Source of the DNA: Lachnospiraceae bacterium MD308 | GTDB taxonomy: Bacteria > Bacillota > Clostridia > Lachnospirales > Lachnospiraceae | Length of the DNA stretch: 31,317 nt | NCBI GenBank assembly: GCA_010206225.2 | Contig: VIQU02000005.1 | Span: 99,027-130,343, forward strand | Direction of reading: 5' to 3' | Shown: piece after piece, positions 3,625 to 31,317 of the stretch | Layout: the number at the start of each line of letters is the position of its first letter | Position numbering within the stretch: position 1 is the first letter of the stretch | Translations under genes and position numbers: made by a program | Notes under the pieces: model-generated | What the model was told of the DNA's origin: nothing | The model's input: only the letters and a program-made list of their open reading frames with translations | Databases searched by the model: none

Positions 3625-3816
3625 ATGGATTTTATGACAACTAAAGAAGCCGCCTTGAAATGGGGGCTTACAAACAGAATGGTACAATATTACTGCAAAG
3701 AGGGTAAAATTCAAAAAGCGGAAAAAATAGGAAGCATGTGGCTGCTTCCAAAAGATGCAAAGAAGCCTATTGATAAAAGGACTATGGAGGGGAGGGCTAA
3801 GGAAAGTGGCCAGTAA
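3625..3816 (+). CDS. Small helix-turn-helix DNA-binding protein (MerR/excisionase-type HTH)
   Basis: ATG at 3625 lies 6 nt after aggagg. The 63 aa product MDFMTTKEAALKWGLTNRMVQYYCKEGKIQKAEKIGSMWLLPKD has a typical HTH_17-like pattern. The longer ORF-track N-terminus lies in low-complexity AT-rich DNA. Confidence 0.65.
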   Translation: MDFMTTKEAALKWGLTNRMVQYYCKEGKIQKAEKIGSMWLLPKDAKKPIDKRTMEGRAKESGQ

Positions 3817-5497: not shown

Positions 5498-6412
5498 ATG
5501 GATTATATTATCGCAACATCAAATTTGACAAAATCCTATAAGGAAAAAGTTGTAGTTGACAAGGTAAATCTTCATGTTAAAAAGGGAGAAATCTATGGCT
5601 TTGTTGGGCCAAACGGCGCAGGAAAAAGCACTATCATGAAAATGCTTTTGAATTTAGTGCGCCCGGATTCCGGAGAAATATATATTTTTGGCGAAAAAAT
5701 GGACGATAAGAATTATGAATGTCTGAAACGGATTGGCTGTATCATAGAAAACCCTTATTTCTATGAAAAAATGACAGGACTACAAAATTTGGAATTGCAT
5801 TGTGATTATATGGGTTATCATAACCGCAGACGTATAAAAGATGTTTTGGAATTGGTCAATCTTCAAAACATTGAGGGAAAAGCAGTTTCGCAATATTCTT
5901 TAGGGATGAAACAGCGTCTTGCCATTGCAAGGGCAATTTTAGCAAAACCAGAATTGTTGATACTGGACGAACCTATCAATGCGCTTGACCCAGAGGGAAT
6001 AAAAGAAATGCGTCTTTTATTTGGGCGGCTACATCAGGATTACGGGGCAACTATTTTTATTTCCAGCCATATTCTTTCCGAAGTTGAACAGATTGCGGAC
6101 AGAATCGGCGTTATCGCAGGCGGAAAGCTCTTGAAAGAAATATCTATCCATGAAGTTCATGAATATCAGACAGAATACATTGAAATAGATACGGATAATG
6201 TGAAACAAGCCGCCTGCCTTTTGGAACAAGACGAGAGGCTGTCACATTTTGATGTAGTGGACGATACGATTATCAGGATTTATAACACCGTTGTTTCCGG
6301 AAAAGAAATCTCAGCGTTGCTTGTAAAAAATGGAGTTGGTTTGGAAAGCATAGGACGAAAGGAAAACAGTTTGGAGGATTATTTCTTCCAGCTTACAAAG
6401 GAGGGAAAATAG
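5498..6412 (+). CDS. ABC transporter ATP-binding protein (BcrA/lantibiotic-protection-like)
   Basis: Walker A GPNGAGKST, signature YSLGMKQR, Walker B LLILDEP, H-loop SSH. RBS aaggagg. Confidence 0.85.
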   Translation: MDYIIATSNLTKSYKEKVVVDKVNLHVKKGEIYGFVGPNGAGKSTIMKMLLNLVRPDSGEIYIFGEKMDDKNYECLKRIGCIIENPYFYEKMTGLQNLELHCDYMGYHNRRRIKDVLELVNLQNIEGKAVSQYSLGMKQRLAIARAILAKPELLILDEPINALDPEGIKEMRLLFGRLHQDYGATIFISSHILSEVEQIADRIGVIAGGKLLKEISIHEVHEYQTEYIEIDTDNVKQAACLLEQDERLSHFDVVDDTIIRIYNTVVSGKEISALLVKNGVGLESIGRKENSLEDYFFQLTKEGK

Positions 6413-9730: not shown

Positions 9731-10477
9731 TTATTCAACAACTAGTATATTCTCATATTCTTCATACCCGACACTGTATTTATCTGTTATGAATACCGTC
9801 CCGTAAAACGGAGCAAACGTCACAGAGCTTATGATATCAAACTTGGAGTTGTCACAAAGCACATAACAATTTTTACACTGCTCCATAGCTGTCTGCTTCA
9901 CCATCGCTTCATTGGCATCCGGCGTTGTGCAGCCGCTTTTTTTTGCCACTCCGTTAGTCCCAAAAAAGCCCTTCGTAAAATGATACCCCTGAAGCATCCG
10001 CATTGCCTGATTTCCGACAATCGCCTCTGTAGAGGCCTTCAATTCACCGCCTATCAGCAGAACCTTCATCCCTTTGGACACAAGACGCTGGGCATGAGCG
10101 AATGCATTTGTCACAAAAGTAGCCCTCTTTTCACCGATATAGTCTAACATGTATCCTGTCGTCGTACCTGCGTCCAGATAAATAAAATCCTCCGGTTCTA
10201 TGAGCGATGCCGCATACTTTGCGATTCTCTGCTTTTCCTCCCGGTTTAAGTCCAGCTTCTGAGCCACCGTATATTCGTGGGCAGTCACAGCATCGTTTCC
10301 TGCTGTGACTGCACCGCCAAATACTTTGACAAGCTTACCTTCACGGTCAAGCGCTGTGATGTCCCGGCGCACCGTAGATTCCGATGTGTCCAGCATATCC
10401 TTTACTTCCGTCACCGTGACACTTCCATTCTCCTCCAGAAGCTTTAGTATCAGTTCATGCCTTTGCTTTGTTAACAT
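9731..10477 (-). CDS. fruR: DeoR-family transcriptional repressor (fructose operon regulator type)
   Basis: N-terminal HTH (RHELILKLLEENGSVTVTEVKDMLDTSESTVRRDI) plus a DeoR C-terminal sensor domain. The ATG directly abuts the ptsI stop. Confidence 0.8.
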   Translation of the reverse strand: MLTKQRHELILKLLEENGSVTVTEVKDMLDTSESTVRRDITALDREGKLVKVFGGAVTAGNDAVTAHEYTVAQKLDLNREEKQRIAKYAASLIEPEDFIYLDAGTTTGYMLDYIGEKRATFVTNAFAHAQRLVSKGMKVLLIGGELKASTEAIVGNQAMRMLQGYHFTKGFFGTNGVAKKSGCTTPDANEAMVKQTAMEQCKNCYVLCDNSKFDIISSVTFAPFYGTVFITDKYSVGYEEYENILVVE

Positions 10478-12121
10478 CTATTTTCCCGCCTTGTACTCTT
10501 CTACATTCGTCTCCAGCACTATTTTCCGAATCGGGAGAATGCTTCCCGGTGATACAGACAGCTCGTCAACCCCCATTGCAAGAAACTCTTTTGTAAGTGT
10601 CTGGTCTGCGCCAAGCTCGCCGCAGATACCCGCCCAAATCCCTGCCTTGTGCGCATTTTCCACTACTCTGGAAATCATGCGCAGGATTGCCGGATGATGG
10701 GAATCATAAAATTCATCCAATTTCGTGTTCTGGCGGTCAATTGCAAGAGTATACTGTGTCAGATCATTTGTACCGATACTGAAGAAATCAACCTCCTTCG
10801 CCAGCTCATCACTCACGATTGCTGCTGCCGGAGTCTCGATCATAATGCCCTGTTCCGGTTCGCCATATTCGATTCCCTGATCTGTAAGCTCTGCCTTTAC
10901 AAGCGCCACGATCTCCTTTATCCGCTGCACTTCCTTCACACTTGTGATCATCGGATACATAATAGCAATCTTTCCATACGCACTGGCACGGAACAATGCG
11001 CGAAGCTGTGTCTTAAACACTTCCGGTCTTGTAAGACAGATACGGATTGCCCGATAGCCAAGCGCCGGGTTCTCCTCATGCTCCATCTCAAAATAATCAC
11101 ACTGCTTGTCAGCTCCGATATCCAGAGTACGTATGATAACACGCTTGCCTGCCATCGTCTCCGCCACTTGCTTATATACTTGAAACTGCTCTTCTTCTGT
11201 AGGATAATTATCCTTCTCAAGATAAATAAATTCACTTCTGAAAAGTCCGATTCCGCCGGCGTCATTCTGCAGAACTGTCGCAAGATCTTTTATATTGCCG
11301 ATATTCGCATACAGCATGACCTTTTTACCGTCAAGAGTAACATTCTCCCTGCCCTTCAGCGTCTGGAGAAGTTCTTTGCGCTCTTCATCCTCCTGCTTTC
11401 TCTTTTTCATCATCTCAAGAGTCTCTTCATCCGGATCAACATATATCTTTCCGGCTGCTCCGTCTACAATTCCAAGCTTTCCGTCTACCGACTCATCCAA
11501 AGGAATCGGGGTTCCCACAAGTGCCGGAATCGCCATGGTTCTTGCCAGAATCGCCGTATGCGAATTCAGCGAACCGTGAACTGTGACAAAGGAAAGCACC
11601 ATGTCCTTATCAAGCTGCACAGTCTCTGACGGTGCAAGGTCATCCGCCACGATAATAGACGGCTCATTCGTTCCGGCTCCCCGCCCGCTCTCTCCGTTTA
11701 ATATAGAAAGAACTCGCTCGGAAATATCTTTTACATCCGCAGCTCTCTCTCTCATATAATCGTCATCCATTGCCGCAAACATCTGGGCAAAATTATCTGC
11801 CGTTGATGCTACCGCATACTCAGCATTAATCCCCTGCGTACGCACCATATTTTCAATGGAATCGTTGTAATCATCATCATCCAGCATCATCTGGTGAACC
11901 TCAAAGATTGCAGCATTGGCCTCTCCCACTTCCCGGAGCGCCTTGTCATAAAGTCCCTGAAGCTGCCTTACAGCCTCAGCCTTCGCAGCTTCATAGCGTG
12001 TAATCTCAGTCTCTGCATCATCAACCTTCACTCGCTTAACCTGCTGCTCACCCTTTTTATATACACTGATCTTGCCGATCGCAACTCCATTAAAAACACT
12101 CTTGCCTTCATATATATTCAT
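10478..12121 (-). CDS. ptsI: Phosphoenolpyruvate-protein phosphotransferase (PTS Enzyme I)
   Basis: I place the start at MNIYEGKS (ATG 12121, RBS aaggag). Contains the phospho-His region GSLNSHTAILAR and a PEP-utilising C-terminal domain. The ORF-track N-terminal extension lies in GC-rich spacer DNA. Confidence 0.9.
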   Translation of the reverse strand: MNIYEGKSVFNGVAIGKISVYKKGEQQVKRVKVDDAETEITRYEAAKAEAVRQLQGLYDKALREVGEANAAIFEVHQMMLDDDDYNDSIENMVRTQGINAEYAVASTADNFAQMFAAMDDDYMRERAADVKDISERVLSILNGESGRGAGTNEPSIIVADDLAPSETVQLDKDMVLSFVTVHGSLNSHTAILARTMAIPALVGTPIPLDESVDGKLGIVDGAAGKIYVDPDEETLEMMKKRKQEDEERKELLQTLKGRENVTLDGKKVMLYANIGNIKDLATVLQNDAGGIGLFRSEFIYLEKDNYPTEEEQFQVYKQVAETMAGKRVIIRTLDIGADKQCDYFEMEHEENPALGYRAIRICLTRPEVFKTQLRALFRASAYGKIAIMYPMITSVKEVQRIKEIVALVKAELTDQGIEYGEPEQGIMIETPAAAIVSDELAKEVDFFSIGTNDLTQYTLAIDRQNTKLDEFYDSHHPAILRMISRVVENAHKAGIWAGICGELGADQTLTKEFLAMGVDELSVSPGSILPIRKIVLETNVEEYKAGK

Positions 12122-23142: not shown

Positions 23143-24552
23143 ATGAGGCATTCTGCAAAACAGGGAAAAGATTTTAGTCAGGGAAGTGTCTGTGTCAATA
23201 TTCTCCGGCTTGCAATTCCCATGACTTTAGCGCAGCTCATCAATGTGCTGTACAATGTCGTAGACCGTATTTACATTGGCCATATTCCTCATACATCTAC
23301 TGATGCGCTGACTGGCATCGGTCTGGCTTTGCCTGTCATTACTATCATCACTGCATTTGCCAACCTGTTCGGCATGGGCGGCGCGCCTCTCTTTTCAATT
23401 GCAAGAGGTGCAAATGAGCCTGAGAAAGCCGGACAGATCATGGGAAATTCTTTTTCCATGCTTCTCTTATCCGGAATGATTCTTTCCGTTGGCTGTTATA
23501 TATTTAAAAAACCTCTTTTGTACCTGTTCGGTGCAAGCGACGTGACATATCCTTATGCCAGCGCTTATATATCCCTGTACCTTCTGGGCACTTTGTTTGT
23601 TATGATCAACCTTGGCATGAACAATTTTATCAATGCACAGGGGTTCGGAGTGACCGGAATGCTCACAGTCTCTATCGGTGCCGTACTGAATCTGATTTTC
23701 GATCCTCTGTTTATCTTTGTATTTGACATGGGCATCAGGGGTGCCGCGATCGCAACGATCATCTCTCAGGGAATCTCTGCCCTGTGGGTACTTCGCTTTC
23801 TGACTGGCAAGGACGCACTGATCAGACTGACCGCAAAGACCTCCGCATTGCAGCCGGCACTCATAAAAGAGATTACTGCACTCGGCCTCTCTGGATTTGT
23901 TATGGCCATTACCAATGGGGCGGTACAGATTATATGCAATGCTACTCTGCAGCGCTACGGCGGCGACCTGTATGTAGGAATCATGACAGTTATCAATTCC
24001 GTCCGGGAGATTACAACTATCCCGGTGACGGGACTTTCTAACGGCGCGCAGCCTGTGATCAGCTTTAACTACGGCGCGAAAAAATACGACCGGGTAAAAT
24101 CCGCCATAAAGCTTACTACTGTCTTCGCTATCATATTTACATTTATAACATGGGCATTTATTTTCTTTTTTCCGCACTTTATCATCCGTCTGTTCAGCAG
24201 CGAACCGGATCTGCTGAGAGAAGGAATACCCGCTATGCATCTGTACTTTTTCGGAATCTTTATGATGGCGCTGCAGTTTTCCGGACAGTCCGCTTTCGTT
24301 GCTCTCGGCAAAGCAAAGCATGCCGTCTTTTTCTCCTTGCTTCGCAAAGCAATCATCGTGATTCCGCTCACTCTCTTCCTCCCAACAGTTGCCGGGTCTG
24401 GCACTGTGGGTGTGTTTTTAGCAGAACCGATCTCAAACTTTATCGGGGGAACAGCTTGTTTCACCACTATGGTTATAACCGTATGTAGGCAGCTTGAAAA
24501 CGAGAAAGATAAAAGTGCCGAAAGCCGCCCCAGAATTCCCCTCAAGCACTGA
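23143..24552 (+). CDS. MATE-family efflux transporter
   Basis: 469 aa with about 12 TM helices. N-terminal ILRLAIPMTLAQLINVLYNVVDRIYIGH is typical of MatE. Confidence 0.85.
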   Translation: MRHSAKQGKDFSQGSVCVNILRLAIPMTLAQLINVLYNVVDRIYIGHIPHTSTDALTGIGLALPVITIITAFANLFGMGGAPLFSIARGANEPEKAGQIMGNSFSMLLLSGMILSVGCYIFKKPLLYLFGASDVTYPYASAYISLYLLGTLFVMINLGMNNFINAQGFGVTGMLTVSIGAVLNLIFDPLFIFVFDMGIRGAAIATIISQGISALWVLRFLTGKDALIRLTAKTSALQPALIKEITALGLSGFVMAITNGAVQIICNATLQRYGGDLYVGIMTVINSVREITTIPVTGLSNGAQPVISFNYGAKKYDRVKSAIKLTTVFAIIFTFITWAFIFFFPHFIIRLFSSEPDLLREGIPAMHLYFFGIFMMALQFSGQSAFVALGKAKHAVFFSLLRKAIIVIPLTLFLPTVAGSGTVGVFLAEPISNFIGGTACFTTMVITVCRQLENEKDKSAESRPRIPLKH

Positions 24553-24611
24553 ATATACTCCCGGTCATCCGCATATCTTAATTTGAGAAGGCAACAAGGA
24601 GTGAACGATTT

Positions 24612-25229
24612 ATGCTGAATTATCTATGGGCTGGAATGATCGTGATCGGAATCATATTCGCCTCATTTACGGGGAAGATGCCTGATATCACAAATGCCGC
24701 ACTGGATTCTTCTAAGGAAGCTGTAGCTTTATGCATTACCATGATGGGAGTTATGGCATTCTGGGTAGGACTTATGGAAATCGCATCAAAAGCCGGAATC
24801 ATCGAAAGTGCTTCCAGAAAGATCCGTCCTCTTATCCGGTTTCTTTTTCCGAACCTCCCTGCAGGCCATTCCGCCGAAGAGCACATTACAACAAATATCA
24901 TAGCCAATGTACTGGGACTTGGATGGGCGGCGACCCCGGCGGGATTGCGTGCAATGGAAGAACTTGGTAAACTGGAAGAAGACAGAAGGAAAGGACGACT
25001 TCCCGAACCGGTTAGAAAGCGGGGGATCGCCAGTAATGAGATGTGTACGTTTTTAATCATCAATATCTCGTCGCTGCAGCTGATTCCGGTGAATGTGATC
25101 GCTTACCGGAGCCAGTACGGGAGCGTGAACCCGGCGGCAATCGTGGGGCCGGGGATCGCGGCGACGGCGGTGAGCACGATTGTGGCGGTGGTATATTGTA
25201 AGATGATGGACGGGAAGTGGAGGATATAA
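24612..25229 (+). CDS. spmA: Spore maturation protein A (nucleoside-recognition/Gate domain)
   Basis: 205 aa starting MLNYLWAGMIVIGI, with ...NVLGLGWAATPAGLRAMEEL. RBS aaggag. Confidence 0.8.
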   Translation: MLNYLWAGMIVIGIIFASFTGKMPDITNAALDSSKEAVALCITMMGVMAFWVGLMEIASKAGIIESASRKIRPLIRFLFPNLPAGHSAEEHITTNIIANVLGLGWAATPAGLRAMEELGKLEEDRRKGRLPEPVRKRGIASNEMCTFLIINISSLQLIPVNVIAYRSQYGSVNPAAIVGPGIAATAVSTIVAVVYCKMMDGKWRI

Positions 25230-25316
25230 TATCTTCCGCTTTCGTAGTATTCAAGAATAAACGAAAATGAGTTTTGAAAGTATATTGAGAGAAACTGATT
25301 TTTAGGGTATACTAAG
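25219..25316. repeat. Left copy of the direct repeat flanking the defence-like island (last codons of spmA plus downstream DNA)
   Basis: The 88 nt at 25219-25306 match 28450-28537 with 6 mismatches. The next 10 nt, gtatactaag, match 28600-28609. Confidence 0.85.
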
Positions 25317-25388
25317 TAATTAAGATGTAAAGCTAACAGATATCCGGTTTGTATAATATAAGTTAAAAAATCTGAGGAGGAAACGATA

Positions 25389-26522
25389 TTGAGCATGATG
25401 AGCGATTTGAAAGGAATTAGCATTCAACAATATAAGACGGATATTGGATTTCGTACTCTGGTAGAAGGTGTAAACGAAAATTTGTATATTATACCCAAAT
25501 ATCAGAGAAAATATCGTTGGAGTAAGGAACAGGTTATATCGTTAGTTGAATCATTGATTCGTGGTTTACCGATTCCGCCAATTTATACTTGCAGAAACAA
25601 GGAAAATCAATTGGAAATCCTGGATGGACAACAGCGCGTTTTGAGTTTATTTTTTTATTATATAGGTTATTATTTAGATAAAAGAAAAAATAATTCTGTA
25701 GATTTTTCAGAGATTCAAGTGGATAACGGTTCTTTTAAGGAAGCCTTGACAAGCCAACTGGCATTAGAAGAACTTCATATTCAATTAAAAAATGAAGATG
25801 AGAAAAATTTTAATGTAGATTATGCCGCGCTTCCCATGGAAATGAAAAGACGCATAGACTACACGTCAATGACTGTTATAGAGATAAAAATTGATGACGA
25901 AAAGCAGCGTACAAAAATATTAAGAAAAATTTTTGAAAATTTAAATGCAAAAGGATCTCTTTTGACGCAGCAGGAATTGAGGAATGGAATATATGTATGT
26001 GATTTTTATGCCATGCTGCAGGAATATAACAGGCATGATGATAAATGGCGAAAAATATGGGGGAAAGAGGATGCTGCGGAACGCGACATGGAAACTCTTT
26101 TGCGGTTTTGCGCATTGAAAAAGTATGTTAGGATTGAGCAGAAGGACTCAATAAATTTTAATTTTATTATAGAAAACTATCATAGTTCCTATACAAAATT
26201 GTTAGACAAGTTTTCAGAAGAATCCATGAAATTTGATAAAAAACAAATTAAAAAATATAGAAATAGTTTGAGTTGCTTTTTTGATTTGTTTAAAGTAAAT
26301 GTAACGCAGTCATCAAAGGTGGCCTTATTAGAGAGTTTCTATATTGTTTATGAGAAATTGGGTATCCATAAACCAGTTACATCTACAATATATAACAAAA
26401 TACTGCATGATCCAAGATATATATCCCATGCGCGGCAGGGAACAGTTAAAATGAAAAGCATGAATGAAAGGTGGAAAACAGTGTATGAAATTTGGTCTGG
26501 AGATGATAAATCATATCATTGA
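25389..26522 (+). CDS. Stand-alone DUF262 (GmrS/ParB-like NTPase) protein, no DUF1524/His-Me nuclease domain
   Basis: Motifs IPKYQRKYRW (from nt 25494), LDGQQR (from nt 25620) and FENLNAKGSLLTQQELRN. TTG 25389 lies 9 nt after gaggagg; ATG 25395 is an alternative start. TATAAT at 25352-25357. Confidence 0.8.
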   Translation: MSMMSDLKGISIQQYKTDIGFRTLVEGVNENLYIIPKYQRKYRWSKEQVISLVESLIRGLPIPPIYTCRNKENQLEILDGQQRVLSLFFYYIGYYLDKRKNNSVDFSEIQVDNGSFKEALTSQLALEELHIQLKNEDEKNFNVDYAALPMEMKRRIDYTSMTVIEIKIDDEKQRTKILRKIFENLNAKGSLLTQQELRNGIYVCDFYAMLQEYNRHDDKWRKIWGKEDAAERDMETLLRFCALKKYVRIEQKDSINFNFIIENYHSSYTKLLDKFSEESMKFDKKQIKKYRNSLSCFFDLFKVNVTQSSKVALLESFYIVYEKLGIHKPVTSTIYNKILHDPRYISHARQGTVKMKSMNERWKTVYEIWSGDDKSYH

Positions 26523-27432
26523 CAAAATATCTAACGAAGAATTACCTTATACAGACAACATTATCATAGGGGAAAATTCTAGCGGAAAAACATTGTTACT
26601 AAAACTATTTATAGAAAAAATAAAGGATGACAGAGCTGTATATTTTATTGATGCAGTTAACCGTGGATTTGATGTAAAAAAAGTATCTAAAACAAATAAA
26701 AGTCCAAAGTATAAAAAAACGATTTTAGACACAAGACTGCAAGACGAGAATTTTAATTTGGTTGATTCTTTTAATTGTTTTGGGACTTTAACAGAAAGGA
26801 TAGAAATTATTTATCAATTATATGAAAAAGAAGTCCAAGATTTATTTTGTGAATTAACAAACGACAGCTTTAAAATAGATTATGATGCTCCATTAGGGGA
26901 AGTAAATTTTGGAAATGGAAAGGGACTCTTATCAAGCGGTTATCAGGCAATAGTACGCATATTACTTGAATTACTGTATTATCAGGATATGGAAATTGAA
27001 ACGAAGGCATTGCAATATGCGTGGATTGTAATAGATGAATTGGACGAATATTTATCTCCCAGATATTCTGCTGCAATTTTAAAATTTTTGAAGAAAACAT
27101 TTCCGTGGGCAAGATGGATTGTAACAACACACTCTTGTGATTTAGTAGCATCCTCAAACGATTCTAATATAATAATTTTAGATAATGGCAGTTATGAAGT
27201 TGCGGATAGTAATGACTACACATCTATTTCAGAAGTGCAGATTATTTTTGACCGAATATTCGGAAATAATGAAGCCTTTGAATCAGAGATAGAAAATACA
27301 TTAAGAAGATTGCTGAATAATAAGATTAGTGGCGCATGGGGAAAAAAAGATGAAGAATGTCTTGAACAGATAGGAAACGGGAAATTGACTGCTTCACAGC
27401 AAATAATTTTACATCAAATACGAGAATGGTGA
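26485..27432 (+). CDS. ABC-like P-loop ATPase (AAA_15/AAA_21, PtuA/OLD-N-terminal type), short form
   Basis: Walker A GENSSGKT (26569-26592), signature-like LSSGYQ, Walker B IVIDELDEYL (~27025-27054) and H-loop VTTHS. Start ATG 26485 follows aaggtgg; ATG 26464 is an alternative. It overlaps the end of the DUF262 gene. Confidence 0.8.
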   Translation: MKFGLEMINHIIDKISNEELPYTDNIIIGENSSGKTLLLKLFIEKIKDDRAVYFIDAVNRGFDVKKVSKTNKSPKYKKTILDTRLQDENFNLVDSFNCFGTLTERIEIIYQLYEKEVQDLFCELTNDSFKIDYDAPLGEVNFGNGKGLLSSGYQAIVRILLELLYYQDMEIETKALQYAWIVIDELDEYLSPRYSAAILKFLKKTFPWARWIVTTHSCDLVASSNDSNIIILDNGSYEVADSNDYTSISEVQIIFDRIFGNNEAFESEIENTLRRLLNNKISGAWGKKDEECLEQIGNGKLTASQQIILHQIREW

Positions 27433-27439
27433 TTGCTAA

Positions 27440-28231
27440 ATGGAAGATTTTTTGTTACTTGAGATACCCGTATTTCAACCGCATTATAAAAAATGGAAAA
27501 AATATGGTTATGCAAATTCAATAGAAAGAAATAATTTAAAGGACACTTTGGAAGAAAGTACAGGTGGATATTGCATGTATTGTTATACACGGATTCGCGT
27601 AGATGGAAAACTATATGCTAATTTAGAACATGCAATTGAAAAAAGTAATTCAGATAAATTGATTGAATGTGTACCTAATATAGGGCTGTCTTGTCCGGTT
27701 TGTAACCAGACATTTAAACGTATTGGAGAAAAAAGGAGAAAAATACCCAAAAACGATATTACTCAATATGAGGAATCCAGTAAATGTTCAACAAGCTGCC
27801 GTAAACAATGTACCGTTCCTTGTAAATCATTAAGGAAATTACAAAAGAAGTACAGTAGTCTTACTGATGCGGAAATTATATTACAGCCTATAGGTATTCA
27901 AGGTACGGATTCAAATGAAACACTAGTTTTACAGTATAATGTTATGAATATGGAATTTGAACCCGCCAAAGATTCACATACATATTCTGATAGGGAACTT
28001 CGATTTATAGAAGCGCACATAAAAAGATTTCGATTAAACGACCCTCCATTCCGTACTCGGCAATTATTTGATTTTGTAAAAAATGTTATAGATAATAATG
28101 GGAACCTCCCTGAATACGAGTACAATAATTTAATCGTAAAGTTATTTTGTGAGAAACTGGCGAACAAATCATCAGAAGAAATACTCAAGATTTGTAAAAG
28201 TATCTTTATTATTACATTTGCTAAAATGTAG
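27440..28231 (+). CDS. HNH zinc-finger endonuclease (PtuB/TIGR02646-like) with extra Cx3Cx3Cx3C cluster and long C-terminal extension
   Basis: C45-x2-C48 ... E63-H64 ... N80 ... C85-x2-C88-N (nt 27572-27706). It starts 7 nt after the ATPase stop. Confidence 0.75.
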   Translation: MEDFLLLEIPVFQPHYKKWKKYGYANSIERNNLKDTLEESTGGYCMYCYTRIRVDGKLYANLEHAIEKSNSDKLIECVPNIGLSCPVCNQTFKRIGEKRRKIPKNDITQYEESSKCSTSCRKQCTVPCKSLRKLQKKYSSLTDAEIILQPIGIQGTDSNETLVLQYNVMNMEFEPAKDSHTYSDRELRFIEAHIKRFRLNDPPFRTRQLFDFVKNVIDNNGNLPEYEYNNLIVKLFCEKLANKSSEEILKICKSIFIITFAKM

Positions 28232-28367
28232 AGAGTGATTTCACAAGGATAGTCAACTATAAATTATCTTTAAATTTAAAGATAAACTGGAAAGTTTTCT
28301 TGAATCGACAAACAATTCCACGGTTCAAAAAAATATTTAAAAAATTCGTGTCACTACCTTGACACAA

Positions 28368-28460
28368 GGGGGATTGAAGGCGATGGAGGAATTGGAGAAG
28401 CTGGAGGAGCACAGGAGGGCCGGGCGGCTTCACGGACCAGTGAGGAAGGGGAGGATATAA
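28368..28460 (+). pseudogene. Diverged spmA fragment with internal deletion (mid-gene segment fused to the last codons)
   Basis: Translation MEELEKLEEHRRAGRLHGPVRKGRI* compares with spmA AMEELGKLEEDRRKGRLPEPVRK...GKWRI*. Nucleotide similarity to 24944-25020 is roughly 70-75% by eye. Confidence 0.65.
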
Positions 28461-28609
28461 TGTCTTCCGCTTTCGTATTATTCAAGAATAGACGAAAAAG
28501 TGTTTTGAAAGTATATTGAGAGGAACTGATTTTTAGGCACCTAACAACGAAATTTTGCGTATTTTGGCAAAATTTAGGTTCCGGTTTATCCGGGTTAGGG
28601 TATACTAAG
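28450..28609. repeat. Right copy of the island-flanking direct repeat, interrupted by a 62-nt insertion
   Basis: See 25219-25316. The insertion occupies 28538-28599. Confidence 0.85.
28538..28599. mobile_element. 57-bp insertion plus 5-bp TTAGG duplication (miniature element or indel) inside the right repeat
   Basis: The left copy reads gatttTTAGGgtatac. The right copy reads gatttTTAGG[cacctaac...tatccggg]TTAGGgtatac. Internal hairpins are aaattttgc/gcaaaattt and ccgg/ccgg. Confidence 0.45.
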
Positions 28610-28649
28610 AAAAGGAATATAGCTTAAGTAAGAAAGGTGGTAATTAGAC

Positions 28650-28882
28650 ATGTCAATTTTACAAAGACAAGTAATTCAATCCCTCGATGGCTTGTCGGAA
28701 TGGTAATTTACGCTTTTTACTTGAAATGATACAGCATTTTATGAAGCCTTCCGAAAACAAAGAAGAAAATGTTTACGGGCTGGCTATGAATAAAAAGATA
28801 GTTTCGAAGAATTGGCAGTTTAGAAGGCCAGGATCTTATTGATGCAGATTATGATATAGATGAGTGCAATGTGATTCACTAA
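28650..28882 (+). pseudogene. Frameshifted small gene (antitoxin-like, possibly DUF2281-type)
   Basis: aaaggtgg RBS with ATG at 28650. MSILQRQVIQSLDGLSE is followed by a stop; a +1 frame gives NLRFLLEMIQHFMKPSENKEENVYGLAMNKKIVS; a further +1 frame gives RIGSLEGQDLIDADYDIDECNVIH*. Two frameshifts are needed for a continuous product. Confidence 0.4.
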
Positions 28883-28978
28883 TTCCATATTATGAAGAAG
28901 AATTTATTATATCGGTTTAATGTATTAGATTTTACATAGGAGAACATGGCAGAAAGATTGTGAGGTGCTTTGATTAAC

Positions 28979-29296
28979 ATGAACAGATTTTCTGAGAGAG
29001 ACTGGAAATTATTTCGGCGTAAGATTGTTGATTGGCAAGAAGCATATATGGACAAGCTGAATAAAGAATATATTGAAATTCTTAGCGGGGAAGGAGATCC
29101 ATCAGATAAGTTTTGGAAACTAGAGGAACGGATTAAGACAGACAAAAAAGCTTGTGGTGTACAATGTGAGATGAGCAGATCGAATCAATTTTATATTATG
29201 ATGTCATTGTTGAACGATGGTGCAATCACGATGGATGATCTGAATGATTTTAGTGATGATTTGAAAGATACGATAGGGCATTTCGCTAAAATGTAA
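28979..29296 (+). CDS. Hypothetical protein (105 aa)
   Basis: ATG 28979 lies 10 nt after gaggtg. The sequence MNRFSERDWKLFRRKIVDWQEAYMDKLNKEY... is non-repetitive. I recognise no family. Confidence 0.5.
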   Translation: MNRFSERDWKLFRRKIVDWQEAYMDKLNKEYIEILSGEGDPSDKFWKLEERIKTDKKACGVQCEMSRSNQFYIMMSLLNDGAITMDDLNDFSDDLKDTIGHFAKM

Positions 29297-29365
29297 AAGA
29301 TGTATCACAGTTAAAACATATCTGAAAAGGATAAGGAATTTTTTAGTCTTAGCTTGACACAACCG

Positions 29366-29406
29366 TACCGGAGCCAGTATGGCAGTGTGAACCCGGCGGC
29401 AGTCGT
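29366..29406 (+). pseudogene. Second diverged spmA fragment (YRSQYGSVNPAAVV), cut by the IS66-family end
   Basis: taccggagccagtatggcagtgtgaacccggcggcagtcgtg compares with spmA 25096-25137 taccggagccagtacgggagcgtgaacccggcggcaatcgtg. Confidence 0.65.
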
Positions 29407-29456
29407 GTAAGTAGGTAATCATCCGTACCTTGACAAAATAAGAAATCCTCTGGCAC

Positions 29457-30016
29457 TTACCAGAGGAAGAACTGTCTCTTACTTTTTTAGTTTGCTGTGA
29501 CAATCAGCCGGCAGACTGGCGGACCAGGGGAGAAGTTCCAGCATGGCTCCCTTTTCTGGAAAAGGACCAAGATCTTTCATCCTTTCCATCACATAGGTGA
29601 GATAATTGTACGGTTTCTTCCCGTTCAGCATAGCTGTTTCTGTAATGCTGTACACTGTTGCGCTGGCCTGCGCTCCGCGGATACTCTTTGCAAAAAGCCA
29701 GTTCCTTCTCCCGGTCGCAAAGTTTTTCAACGCCCGTTACCAGAGGAAGAACTGTCTCTTACTTTTTTAGTTTGCTGTGACAATCAGCCGGCAGACTGGC
29801 GGACCAGGGGAGAAGTTCCAGCATGGCTCCCTTTTCTGGAAAAGGACCAAGATCTTTCATCCTTTCCATCACATAGGTGAGATAATTGTACGGTTTCTTC
29901 CCGTTCAGCATAGCTGTTTCTGTAATGCTGTACACTGTTGCGCTGGCCTGCGCTCCGCGGATACTCTTTGCAAAAAGCCAGTTCCTTCTCCCGGTCGCAA
30001 AGTTTTTCAACGCCCG
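29457..30016. repeat. Perfect 2 x 280 bp tandem duplication of the transposase 3' end plus half of its terminator hairpin
   Basis: 29457-29736 equals 29737-30016 with no mismatches. It creates a second copy of the last 83 codons (ORF 29479-29730). Confidence 0.9.
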
Positions 30017-31317
30017 TTCTGCCGCCAGATTATCGATATTTAAGCGGCCGTCCTCCAGATATCTCTTCAGATAAACTTCCTGGTTCAAAGCGTACAGGAC
30101 AGCCTCTCCGATCATCGAAGACCGGTCTACGGAATCCTCCGGTTTATGGAGCCACTCAAAGAAAGCCTCTAAAAGCGGTCTCGCCTGCTTTTGACGCTCT
30201 TTGTACCGTTCTTCCGGTGACTTGTCACGGATCATTTCTTCAATCTTATAGAGCATCCTGATCCGTGCCAGTGCCTGATATGCGGTTGTCTCCTTCAGCT
30301 CTTCTTTGGTGAAGTCCTTTTTCAGAACCGTCAGGGCTTCATCAAATCTGCGCCTCGCATGAGCCATGCAGCCTGTCGCAGCGATCCTTTCCGGAAGACT
30401 ATGGTATGCCTGATAACCATCACAGGTGAAATACCCCTCGAACTGATCTCCAAGGAATTCCACCGGATGGTATCCGGCCCGCGTCCTTTCATACTGAAAA
30501 AGGACCATCCGTGGTGAGCTTTCAGAACCGTCAGGGCTTCATCAAATCTGCGCCTCGCATGAGCCATGCAGCCTGTCGCAGCGATCCTTTCCGGAAGACT
30601 ATGGTATGCCTGATAACCATCACAGGTGAAATACCCCTCGAACTGATCTCCAAGGAATTCCACCGGATGGTATCCGGCCCGCGTCCTTTCATACTGAAAA
30701 AGGACCATCCGTGGTGAGCCGCTGTATTCGTCGGTGAGATAGACCCACATCCAGTTCTGGGTGGAACCCTTCTGGTCCGGCTCATCAATCACCTGAATTC
30801 TGGTTTCGTCCCCATGTAAATAGTTACTCCGGAGCAGTTCTTCCTTCATCAGATCGTAAAGCGGCTGCAGATACCGGCCGGCACACTGGATGATCCAGTT
30901 TGCCATGGTCTTTGTGGAAAGGTTCAGGTCATACCGGGCAAATTCCCTCTCCTGACGTGCAAGCGGCATCCCGTTTACATACTTGGCGTTCATGATGCCC
31001 GCCACCAGGGATGGGGTTGTCACACTGCCTTTCAGAAGGGACGGCGCTTTTTCCGGACGTTTCATGCCCCCGCATTTCGGGCAGTTGTATACGCAGGTAA
31101 CTTCCTCCACGACTTCAAACCGCGCGGGGATGAATTTCAGACGCTTTACGCTTTCCTTTGTGACAACCTTATATTTCGTATTGCAGTCCGGGCAGTAACG
31201 GTCGTCCCCCGTCAACTTGTATTCGATCACTTCGGTTGTCTCAAAGGAGGAAAGGTCTTCTTCTTTTTTGCCAGAACGTTTTTTCCTCTTATAAGAAGAT
31301 GGATGGACCTCTTCCAG
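29759..31317 (-). pseudogene. IS66-family transposase (TnpC), frameshifted by a 200-bp internal tandem duplication; N-terminus off the window
   Basis: The open frame continues to the window edge (LEEVHPSSYKRKKRSGKKEEDLSSFETTEVIEYKLTGDDRYCPDCN...). It has a zinc-finger CPDC...CPKCG and a DDE region (HGDETRIQV...). The frame is lost at 30520/30519 and resumes in ORF 29759-30508. Confidence 0.85.
30320..30719. repeat. Perfect 2 x 200 bp tandem duplication inside the transposase gene
   Basis: 30320-30519 equals 30520-30719. I found no mismatches on base-by-base comparison. Confidence 0.9.

Follow-up and report, generated by a model that had tools for sequence, protein, structure and literature searches.

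Three co-directional genes at positions 25389-28231 of a 31,317-nucleotide (nt) stretch of DNA from Lachnospiraceae bacterium MD308 (contig VIQU02000005.1 of assembly GCA_010206225.2, contig positions 99,027-130,343, forward strand; hereafter the window) probably constitute an anti-phage operon of the Menshen family. Within this family the trio would represent a subtype whose ATPase and effector are similar to PtuA and PtuB of Septu, carried on a 4.3-kb mobile cassette in a genome of the gut Lachnospiraceae type. Gene 1 (25389-26522, plus strand) encodes an NsnA-like protein of 377 amino acids (aa), gene 2 (26485-27432, plus strand) a 315-aa ATP-binding cassette (ABC) ATPase with both PtuA-like and NsnB-like features, and gene 3 (27440-28231, plus strand) a 263-aa PtuB-like HNH protein falling in the NsnC profile family. 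Menshen is said to have been described, as the set NsnA-NsnB-NsnC, by Millman et al. in 2022. Coordinates are positions in the window, and comparison loci or contigs are labelled L002, L003 etc.

The initial annotation of this region had proposed an undescribed system, while flagging Menshen as a possible home. Novelty was not upheld, since Menshen profiles match all three genes (NsnA at 3e-44, NsnC at 3e-74 and, partially, NsnB at 2e-10). Assignment of every gene to a described system had been named beforehand as the outcome that would speak against the claim, and by way of the profiles of the PADLOC database (PADLOC-DB) this is essentially what was obtained; the same profiles bear out the suggestion of Menshen. 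In terms of profiles the family has already been placed in Menshen, and the little-studied HNH/PtuB-like subtype is catalogued there as a PADLOC profile, so that the trio is best regarded as a further Menshen member and not as a new system. For annotation we propose the label Menshen-family (NsnA / NsnB-like / NsnC-HNH) in place of "hypothetical" or "novel system".

Profile, motif and fold evidence for the three proteins

Profile searches were made against PADLOC-DB v2 (2023), a library of known and candidate defence systems, and also against Pfam and NCBIfam. The gene 1 protein matched the PADLOC NsnA profile (PDLC03877) over most of its length, with 149.8 bits and residues 11-369 aligned on profile positions 43-379 of 385. 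The Pfam scan of the 377-aa protein returned GmrSD_N/DUF262 alone (2.8e-29, residues 23-202), with neither DUF1524 nor another nuclease domain, and NCBIfam gave no match. The motifs YQRKYRW, DGQQR and FENLN correspond to QRxxxW, DGxQR and FxxxN, and Q39, R40, W44, D79-R83, F182 and N186 are invariant in 12 sequences with identity down to 41%. These features are those predicted of a ParB-like DUF262 nucleoside triphosphatase (NTPase) with intact motifs and without a nuclease, as the initial annotation had described it. The second-best whole-protein relative after NsnA was the PD-T4-2_A profile (7.7e-21, residues 29-312); both profiles align through the helical C-terminal region, whereas those of SspE, HEC-05 (a BrxU-like candidate) and HEC-06 align only with the first ~60-140 residues. 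PD-T4-2, Dazbog, GmrSD, BrxU and SspE were rejected as the identity of gene 1, because NsnA was the best full-length profile every time.

The gene 3 protein gave the strongest of the three matches, aligning with the PADLOC NsnC profile (PDLC03885) at 248 bits with residues 1-262 on profile positions 1-254 of 255. The PADLOC PtuB match was confined to residues 30-91 (1e-9), the NCBIfam PtuB match (NF041761; 2e-5) reached 24.6 bits against an equivalog cut-off of 150, and Pfam returned a sub-threshold HNH match alone. The motif is of the form CMYC...EH...N...CxxCN, in which C45, C48, E63, H64, C85, C88 and N89 are invariant in relatives; three more invariant cysteines lie in a conserved region after the HNH core, followed by a helical C-terminal domain. 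In the AlphaFold2 (AF2) model, with a mean predicted local distance difference test (pLDDT) value of 79.6, a beta-beta-alpha HNH core with a CxxC...CxxC finger is formed by approximately residues 61-96. The top two Foldseek matches of this model are PtuB chains of retron complexes, both weak, and neither the model nor its Foldseek matches contained a PIN-like fold. A profile of the protein run against PDB sequences found nothing meaningful, the best being topoisomerase II and xylanase at E values of at least 0.1. From its residues the protein is predicted to be an HNH (beta-beta-alpha-metal) nuclease with intact catalytic and zinc-binding positions.

For gene 2 the Pfam match to AAA_21 (1.3e-7) was just over the cut-off and that to AAA_15 just under it. 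Many PADLOC PtuA profiles matched, the best at 1.2e-19, while NsnB (PDLC03878) gave 38.9 bits with only residues 156-231 aligned on profile positions 217-284 of 345; the PADLOC-DB matches considered for this protein are the best 25 of 72. NCBIfam PtuA (NF041760) scored 45.9 bits against an equivalog cut-off of 500, and the PtuA and PtuB families were the only relevant, and the best, named NCBIfam matches for genes 2 and 3. The motifs GxNxxGK (Walker A), LSSGYQ (signature), DELDE (Walker B) and THS (H-loop) are invariant in relatives, with a canonical DE in the Walker B sequence VIDELDE (D184, E185), and the Pfam scan found no DUF3696. The short ABC ATPase and the HNH finger read in the initial annotation thus carry the motifs expected of them, and gene 2 appears to be a catalytically complete ABC ATPase.

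The fold comparison places gene 2 close to PtuA. Foldseek ranks 1-19 in the PDB for its AF2 model (pLDDT 77.5) are PtuA chains, with E values from 6e-8, belonging to the E. coli Septu and the retron Ec78, Ec83 and Eco7 complexes. With the exception of an unrelated ABC ATPase at rank 20, the top ~35 matches are all PtuA from Septu or retron I-A, and generic ABC and SMC heads rank below. The best PDB sequence matches are likewise PtuA family ATPases. These matches, together with those to PADLOC PtuA and PtuB and the first-ranked, weak fold matches of gene 3 to PtuB, agree with the Septu-like ATPase-HNH pair suggested at the outset. The protein is 130-235 residues shorter than the solved PtuA chains (315 against 445-550 aa).

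The arrangement of the genes was also as first described, i.e. tightly coupled and in one direction. Gene 1 starts at a TTG with GAGGAGG 8 nt upstream. For gene 2 the open reading frame (ORF) list gives a start at ATG 26464 (322 aa), but ATG 26485, with the Shine-Dalgarno-like AAAGGTGG 10 nt upstream, is preferred and was also chosen by the gene callers on six public contigs. With this start gene 2 overlaps gene 1 by 38 nt, up to the gene 1 stop at 26520-26522, and the gap between the gene 2 stop and the gene 3 start is 7 nt. The three genes are translationally coupled and co-inherited. The best promoter-like site is TTGAGA-17-TATACT at 25285-25313, with 10 of 12 positions agreeing, as a consensus match only; an extended -10-like TGTATAAT lies at 25350-25357, upstream of gene 1.

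Conservation and linkage of the trio

The three genes occur together in relatives. At 90% identity the relatives of genes 1, 2 and 3 number 642, 579 and 254 clusters, respectively, and since a gene 3 profile search of 1.84 billion representative proteins found just 186 clusters (50% identity) at E <= 1e-3, the gene 3 family is small and discrete. The HNH subtype is frequent among Lachnospiraceae of the gut: the index of the assembly collection lists the identical gene 3 protein in 199 blocks, and when one genome of each species was scanned with the gene 3 alignment, 45 loci were obtained. The named organisms among these are, within this sampling, Lachnospiraceae or other Clostridia only, with Petralouisia muris, [Clostridium] polysaccharolyticum and Lachnoclostridium sp. 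An14 among them. In metagenomes, an alignment built from distant gene 3 members retrieved 79 loci.

In all six contigs fetched for an identical gene 3, the trio of 377, 315 and 263 aa is colinear, and it stands there in several genomic contexts. Searches with tblastn found genes 1 and 2 directly upstream of gene 3 in relatives, with the spacing kept, and the lowest identities for linked trios were 42-48% (gene 1), 39-43% (gene 2) and 38-46% (gene 3). When loci with more than 2.3 kb of upstream sequence were scanned with hidden Markov models of the three proteins, the colinear A-B-C order was found in 37 of the 39 species-genome loci and 47 of the 49 from metagenomes, the exceptions being truncated or decayed copies; the linkage of gene 1 to genes 2 and 3, proposed as a check in the initial annotation, is thereby confirmed. 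The identities of the three proteins correlate across 32 complete loci (r = 0.96-0.97). The trio is one co-evolving unit.

The Menshen profiles follow the trio into its distant members. Trios at ~40% identity score 146-159 bits with NsnA and 282-292 bits with NsnC, and across distant trios, the sister clade included, NsnA scores 98-159 bits. Ten of the most distant full-length gene 3 relatives were tested, and all match PDLC03885 (1e-30 to 1e-82); as distant relatives score even higher than gene 3, this profile covers the gene 3 family itself, and it is centred on a sister clade within it, because several distant members score much higher with PDLC03885 than with the gene 3-based profile. The gene 2 protein of two distant trios had NsnB as top match in one, that of [Clostridium] polysaccharolyticum (L048; 4e-18), and PtuA in the other.

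Some variation among the relatives may be recorded. In some metagenomic trios the NsnA-like open frame is much longer, at ~550-720 codons from stop to stop (L083 1336-3027; L084 and L095 2314-4005; L105 2284-3930; L127 420-2111; L129 1880-4042), which suggests an extra N-terminal domain, as in "type II" Menshen NsnA with added sensor domains. Decayed trios, in which gene 1, 2 or 3 is truncated or frameshifted, were seen in L039, L042, L043, L045, L050, L051, L124 and L128, and the trio is apparently lost by pseudogenisation besides being gained by transfer. A second NsnA-like or ABC-ATPase-like ORF lies shortly downstream in L095 (8744-9859), L098 (5765-6757) and L101 (5765-7006), so that the trio may cluster there with additional defence genes of DUF262 or ATPase type.

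Relation to known systems and proposed mechanism

According to Li et al. 2025 (PMC12065111), NsnA combines a ParB-DUF262 domain with a C-terminal helical DNA-binding domain termed "ParBDB", NsnB is an ABC ATPase ending in a DUF3696 tail, and NsnC consists of an inactive N-terminal PIN domain and a variable C-terminal effector, which is mostly an RNase and in other cases Toprim or PLD. A model of sensor, transducer and effector is proposed, and the predicted NsnB-NsnC complex resembles Septu PtuA-PtuB (PMC12065111). Our trio shares with Menshen the co-directional order of DUF262 protein, ABC ATPase and effector, the approximately full-length NsnA match of gene 1 with all three DUF262 motifs, the full-length NsnC match of gene 3, the weak match of gene 2 to NsnB, and the sensor-transducer-effector logic. 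It differs in its likely target, DNA instead of RNA, and in its distribution, as all named genomes of the sample that carry it belong to Lachnospiraceae or other Clostridia. Li et al. 2025 describe a list of 1,997 systems in which associations in at least two phyla were required (PMC12065111), and this requirement may have excluded the gene 3 clade.

Several points weigh against the assignment to Menshen. The label rests on per-protein profile scores and not on the rule sets of PADLOC or DefenseFinder. The only Menshen reported as validated is that of Solibacillus silvestris, whose NsnC is an inactive PIN domain with a BECR RNase, and HNH is absent from the 15 NsnC effector families listed by Li et al. 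2025 (PMC12065111). The trio effector, in contrast, has an N-terminal HNH/zinc finger of PtuB type and not an inactive PIN domain with a C-terminal RNase, Toprim or PLD; its likeness to PtuB folds is itself slight (E 0.028, probability 0.90 and template modelling score 0.36-0.43 for one match; E 0.7 and probability 0.23 for the other). The gene 2 match to NsnB is confined to the region from signature to Walker B, ~20% of the profile, and is outranked by 22 PtuA profiles and by one ATPase profile of retron I-A, and NsnB is weak or absent for the ATPases of sister-clade trios. With its Walker B DE, LSSGYQ and no detectable DUF3696, gene 2 is also unlike the S. silvestris NsnB, which has EN in Walker B, GxG replacing SGG, and the DUF3696 C-terminal helix (PMC12065111). 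These peculiarities may not be universal among NsnB proteins, as they were described for the S. silvestris protein. Lastly, the route from DUF262 sensor to ABC ATPase is an open question in the Menshen literature (PMC12065111).

Alternatively, the trio could be a Septu-family PtuA/PtuB system with an acquired third sensor subunit, i.e. a lineage separate from Menshen with which it shares the DUF262 protein, comparable to retron I-A, where a reverse transcriptase (RT) with multicopy single-stranded DNA (msDNA) is added to PtuAB; the PADLOC NsnA and NsnC labels would then lump two convergent three-gene designs. We regard this as unlikely. As in Septu and the Ec78, Ec83 and Eco7 retrons of type I-A, an HNH nuclease comes directly after an ABC ATPase, gene 2 has its closest solved structures in PtuA and gene 3, weakly, in PtuB, and PADLOC and NCBIfam PtuA and PtuB profiles match these two genes. 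The gene 2 scores favour PtuA (1.2e-19) over NsnB (2e-10), its neighbours in PDB by sequence and by fold are PtuA, its Walker B is DE and not the EN of NsnB and it gave no DUF3696 match, while gene 3 matches PtuB profiles and folds and has no PIN-like N-terminal domain. However, the NCBIfam scores are far under the equivalog cut-offs for both PtuA and PtuB, gene 2 is far shorter than PtuA, and the gene 3 family, with its 186 clusters, is small and set apart from general PtuB without a gradual transition. For gene 1 the best profile is NsnA throughout, and NsnB tops the gene 2 matches in one distant trio. Nor is the trio a self-sufficient two-gene system like Septu, as nearly all loci whose upstream sequence is long enough have an obligatory DUF262 gene ahead of the pair. 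In analogy to retron I-A, this third component could serve as a sensor controlling PtuAB, but no reverse transcriptase was found, and the retron-PtuAB design itself was rejected because an Rfam scan of 24500-29600 (E <= 1) revealed no retron-like or other RNA; its sole match, Transposase-2 at 25120-25176, had 21.8 bits against a gathering score of 42.7 (E 0.39).

The DUF262 domain invites two further explanations, both less probable again. One is a type IV modification-dependent restriction enzyme split into separate proteins, with a GmrS-like gene 1, with gene 3 standing in for DUF1524 in trans and with a motor or accessory role for gene 2; modified phage DNA would be cut directly, and no ATP-gated abortive module would be involved. 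The N-terminal DUF262 NTPase domain with DGQQR is common to gene 1, GmrSD, BrxU and SspE, published DUF262 systems sense modified DNA, and an HNH nuclease is present in the trio. We nevertheless find this improbable. Gene 1 lacks the fused DUF1524 His-Me nuclease, and in the trio the nuclease is a protein of its own, of HNH type and encoded after an ABC ATPase; SspE, HEC-05 and HEC-06 cover only the beginning of gene 1, whereas NsnA and PD-T4-2_A cover nearly all of it; and gating is favoured by the ABC ATPase, which is always present and catalytically intact and has the nuclease-gating PtuA as its closest structures. This explanation differs from the assignment to Menshen mainly in the outcome, direct restriction as opposed to abortive infection. 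As regards PD-T4-2, component A scored below NsnA in every trio tested and no PD-T4-2 match for genes 2 and 3 occurred among the matches considered (for gene 2, the best 25 of 72). A non-defence maintenance or addiction module, with a ParB-like protein and an ATPase for partition or an HNH toxin restrained by the other two proteins, could be imagined from the small, repeat-flanked mobile cassette and from the relation of DUF262 to ParB, but it is hardly credible: an ABC ATPase is not a partition ATPase of the ParA type, the search for a replicon or plasmid context found none, all three genes match a library of known and candidate defence systems, and the adjoining cassettes in related arrays hold defence-type AAA_21, DEAD/ResIII, second DUF262 and HipA genes.

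Taking the trio as a Menshen-family operon, a mechanism can be outlined by analogy. The gene 1 protein, as the proposed sensor, would bind invading and possibly modified phage DNA, and its NTPase switch would signal to the ATPase, by analogy with GmrSD, SspE, BrxU and the Menshen model. An oligomer of gene 2, the proposed transducer or gate, would keep the HNH protein inactive in an ATP-dependent manner and license it after the gene 1 signal, as suggested by PtuAB of Septu and retron I-A. The HNH domain of gene 3, as the proposed effector, would then cut either phage DNA, which would be restriction-like, or all DNA, leading to abortive infection; between these two outcomes the sequence cannot decide. 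DNA cutting by gene 3 would differ from the action of the mostly RNase effectors of Menshen.

It is tempting to go further and to view the trio as a natural chimera of a Menshen-type NsnA sensor and a miniaturised Septu-type PtuA-PtuB nuclease module, although we offer this tentatively. If it is true, Menshen, Septu and retron I-A would have a single ATPase-gated effector chassis in common, on which the sensor is exchangeable (a DUF262 NTPase in Menshen, none in Septu and RT-msDNA in retron I-A), and the subtype would be a Menshen that cuts DNA, in contrast to the effectors of RNase type described to date. In any case, the ATPase-nuclease pair of the trio links two named defence families, Menshen and Septu, and with a simple predicted HNH DNase and a minimal 315-aa ATPase it could be a compact model for the signalling from a DUF262 sensor to an ABC ATPase gate.

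The mobile cassette and its surroundings

The G+C content is 0.28-0.34 over 25200-28400, as compared to 0.44-0.54 upstream and 0.47-0.52 beyond 29400; on average it is ~0.31 in the block and ~0.47 in its flanks. The low G+C content, the flanking repeats and the near-identical copies in unrelated contexts show that the cassette is mobile, in accordance with the AT-rich, horizontally acquired block described initially; such mobility is typical of defence cargo. The mobile unit extends over 25104-29407 (4.3 kb) and is 99.6-99.7% identical in L002 and L004, whose contexts are unrelated; identity to both begins exactly at the segment 25104-25229 and stops at 29400-29407. This left boundary segment (plus strand) is the 3' end of an upstream gene for a 205-aa Gate-domain membrane protein, and the right boundary (29366-29407, plus strand) is a copy of that 3' end, 90% identical to 25104-25145. 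The trio is itself bracketed by a 94-nt direct repeat, with the left copy at 25213-25306 (plus strand; gene end and leader, with the promoter-like site described above) and the right copy, to which it is 93% identical, at 28444-28537 (plus strand), while the 42-nt pair at 25104-25145 and 29366-29407 brackets the larger unit. The initial annotation was correct in that duplicated 3' DNA brackets the genes, but the name spmA which it gave to the 205-aa gene was not confirmed, as the Pfam Gate match is sub-threshold and NCBIfam gave no match.

It had also stated that the island has no other cargo. This is not exact, because the moving unit also holds a 105-aa ORF (28979-29296, plus strand) behind a partial copy of the 5' leader (28463-28537). 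The ORF accompanies the trio in the near-identical islands L002-L006 and is absent beside all more distant trios; a partial relative occurs in L027 (14437-14577), far from the trio, and no Pfam, PADLOC or NCBIfam profile matched. As a fourth component it was rejected, being missing from all trios below ~97% nucleotide identity.

In L002 the cassette adjoins three consecutive large serine recombinases. In L004 its neighbour is a DEAD/ResIII helicase gene, and the next cassette downstream holds a second DUF262 gene. Small cassettes in the window and in related loci are separated by direct repeats that copy the terminal ~120 nt of the upstream gene: at 25104-25229, 28380-28537 and 29325-29407 in the window; at 5665-5790, 9927-10043, 11964-12062 and 14746-14779 in L003; at 1236-1383, 5636-5790 and 9886-10052 in L004; and at 1610-1726, 3647-3772 and 8094-8219 in L007. 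The cargo of these cassettes is of defence or toxin type and comprises, besides the trio, an AAA_21 pair of 385 and 172 aa, a DEAD/ResIII pair, a second DUF262 with PRiA4_ORF3, and HipA_C. A single attachment site seems to have received integrase-less cassettes one after another. A tblastn search with gene 3 of 72,556 plasmids and 50,697 phages gave no match, so that these collections supply neither an annotated record lending a name nor evidence of plasmid or phage carriage.

Directly before the right copy of the 94-nt repeat lies a 64-nt fragment (28380-28443) with the translation MEELEKLEEHRRAGRLHGPVRK, similar to a stretch from the interior of the upstream gene, AMEELGKLEEDRRKGRLPEPVRK. 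It runs without a gap into the second copy of the 3' end and leader of that gene, is conserved in L002-L006, and is the scar of an earlier recombination. Beyond the mobile unit, an IS66-family transposase gene on the minus strand contains exact tandem duplications at 29457-30016 (280 nt, twice) and 30320-30719 (200 nt, twice), which split it into the overlapping ORFs 29759-30508 and 30331-31230. These duplications are possibly an assembly or stitching artefact of the window; L006, otherwise 99-100% identical, is without both and has one intact ORF of 542 aa.

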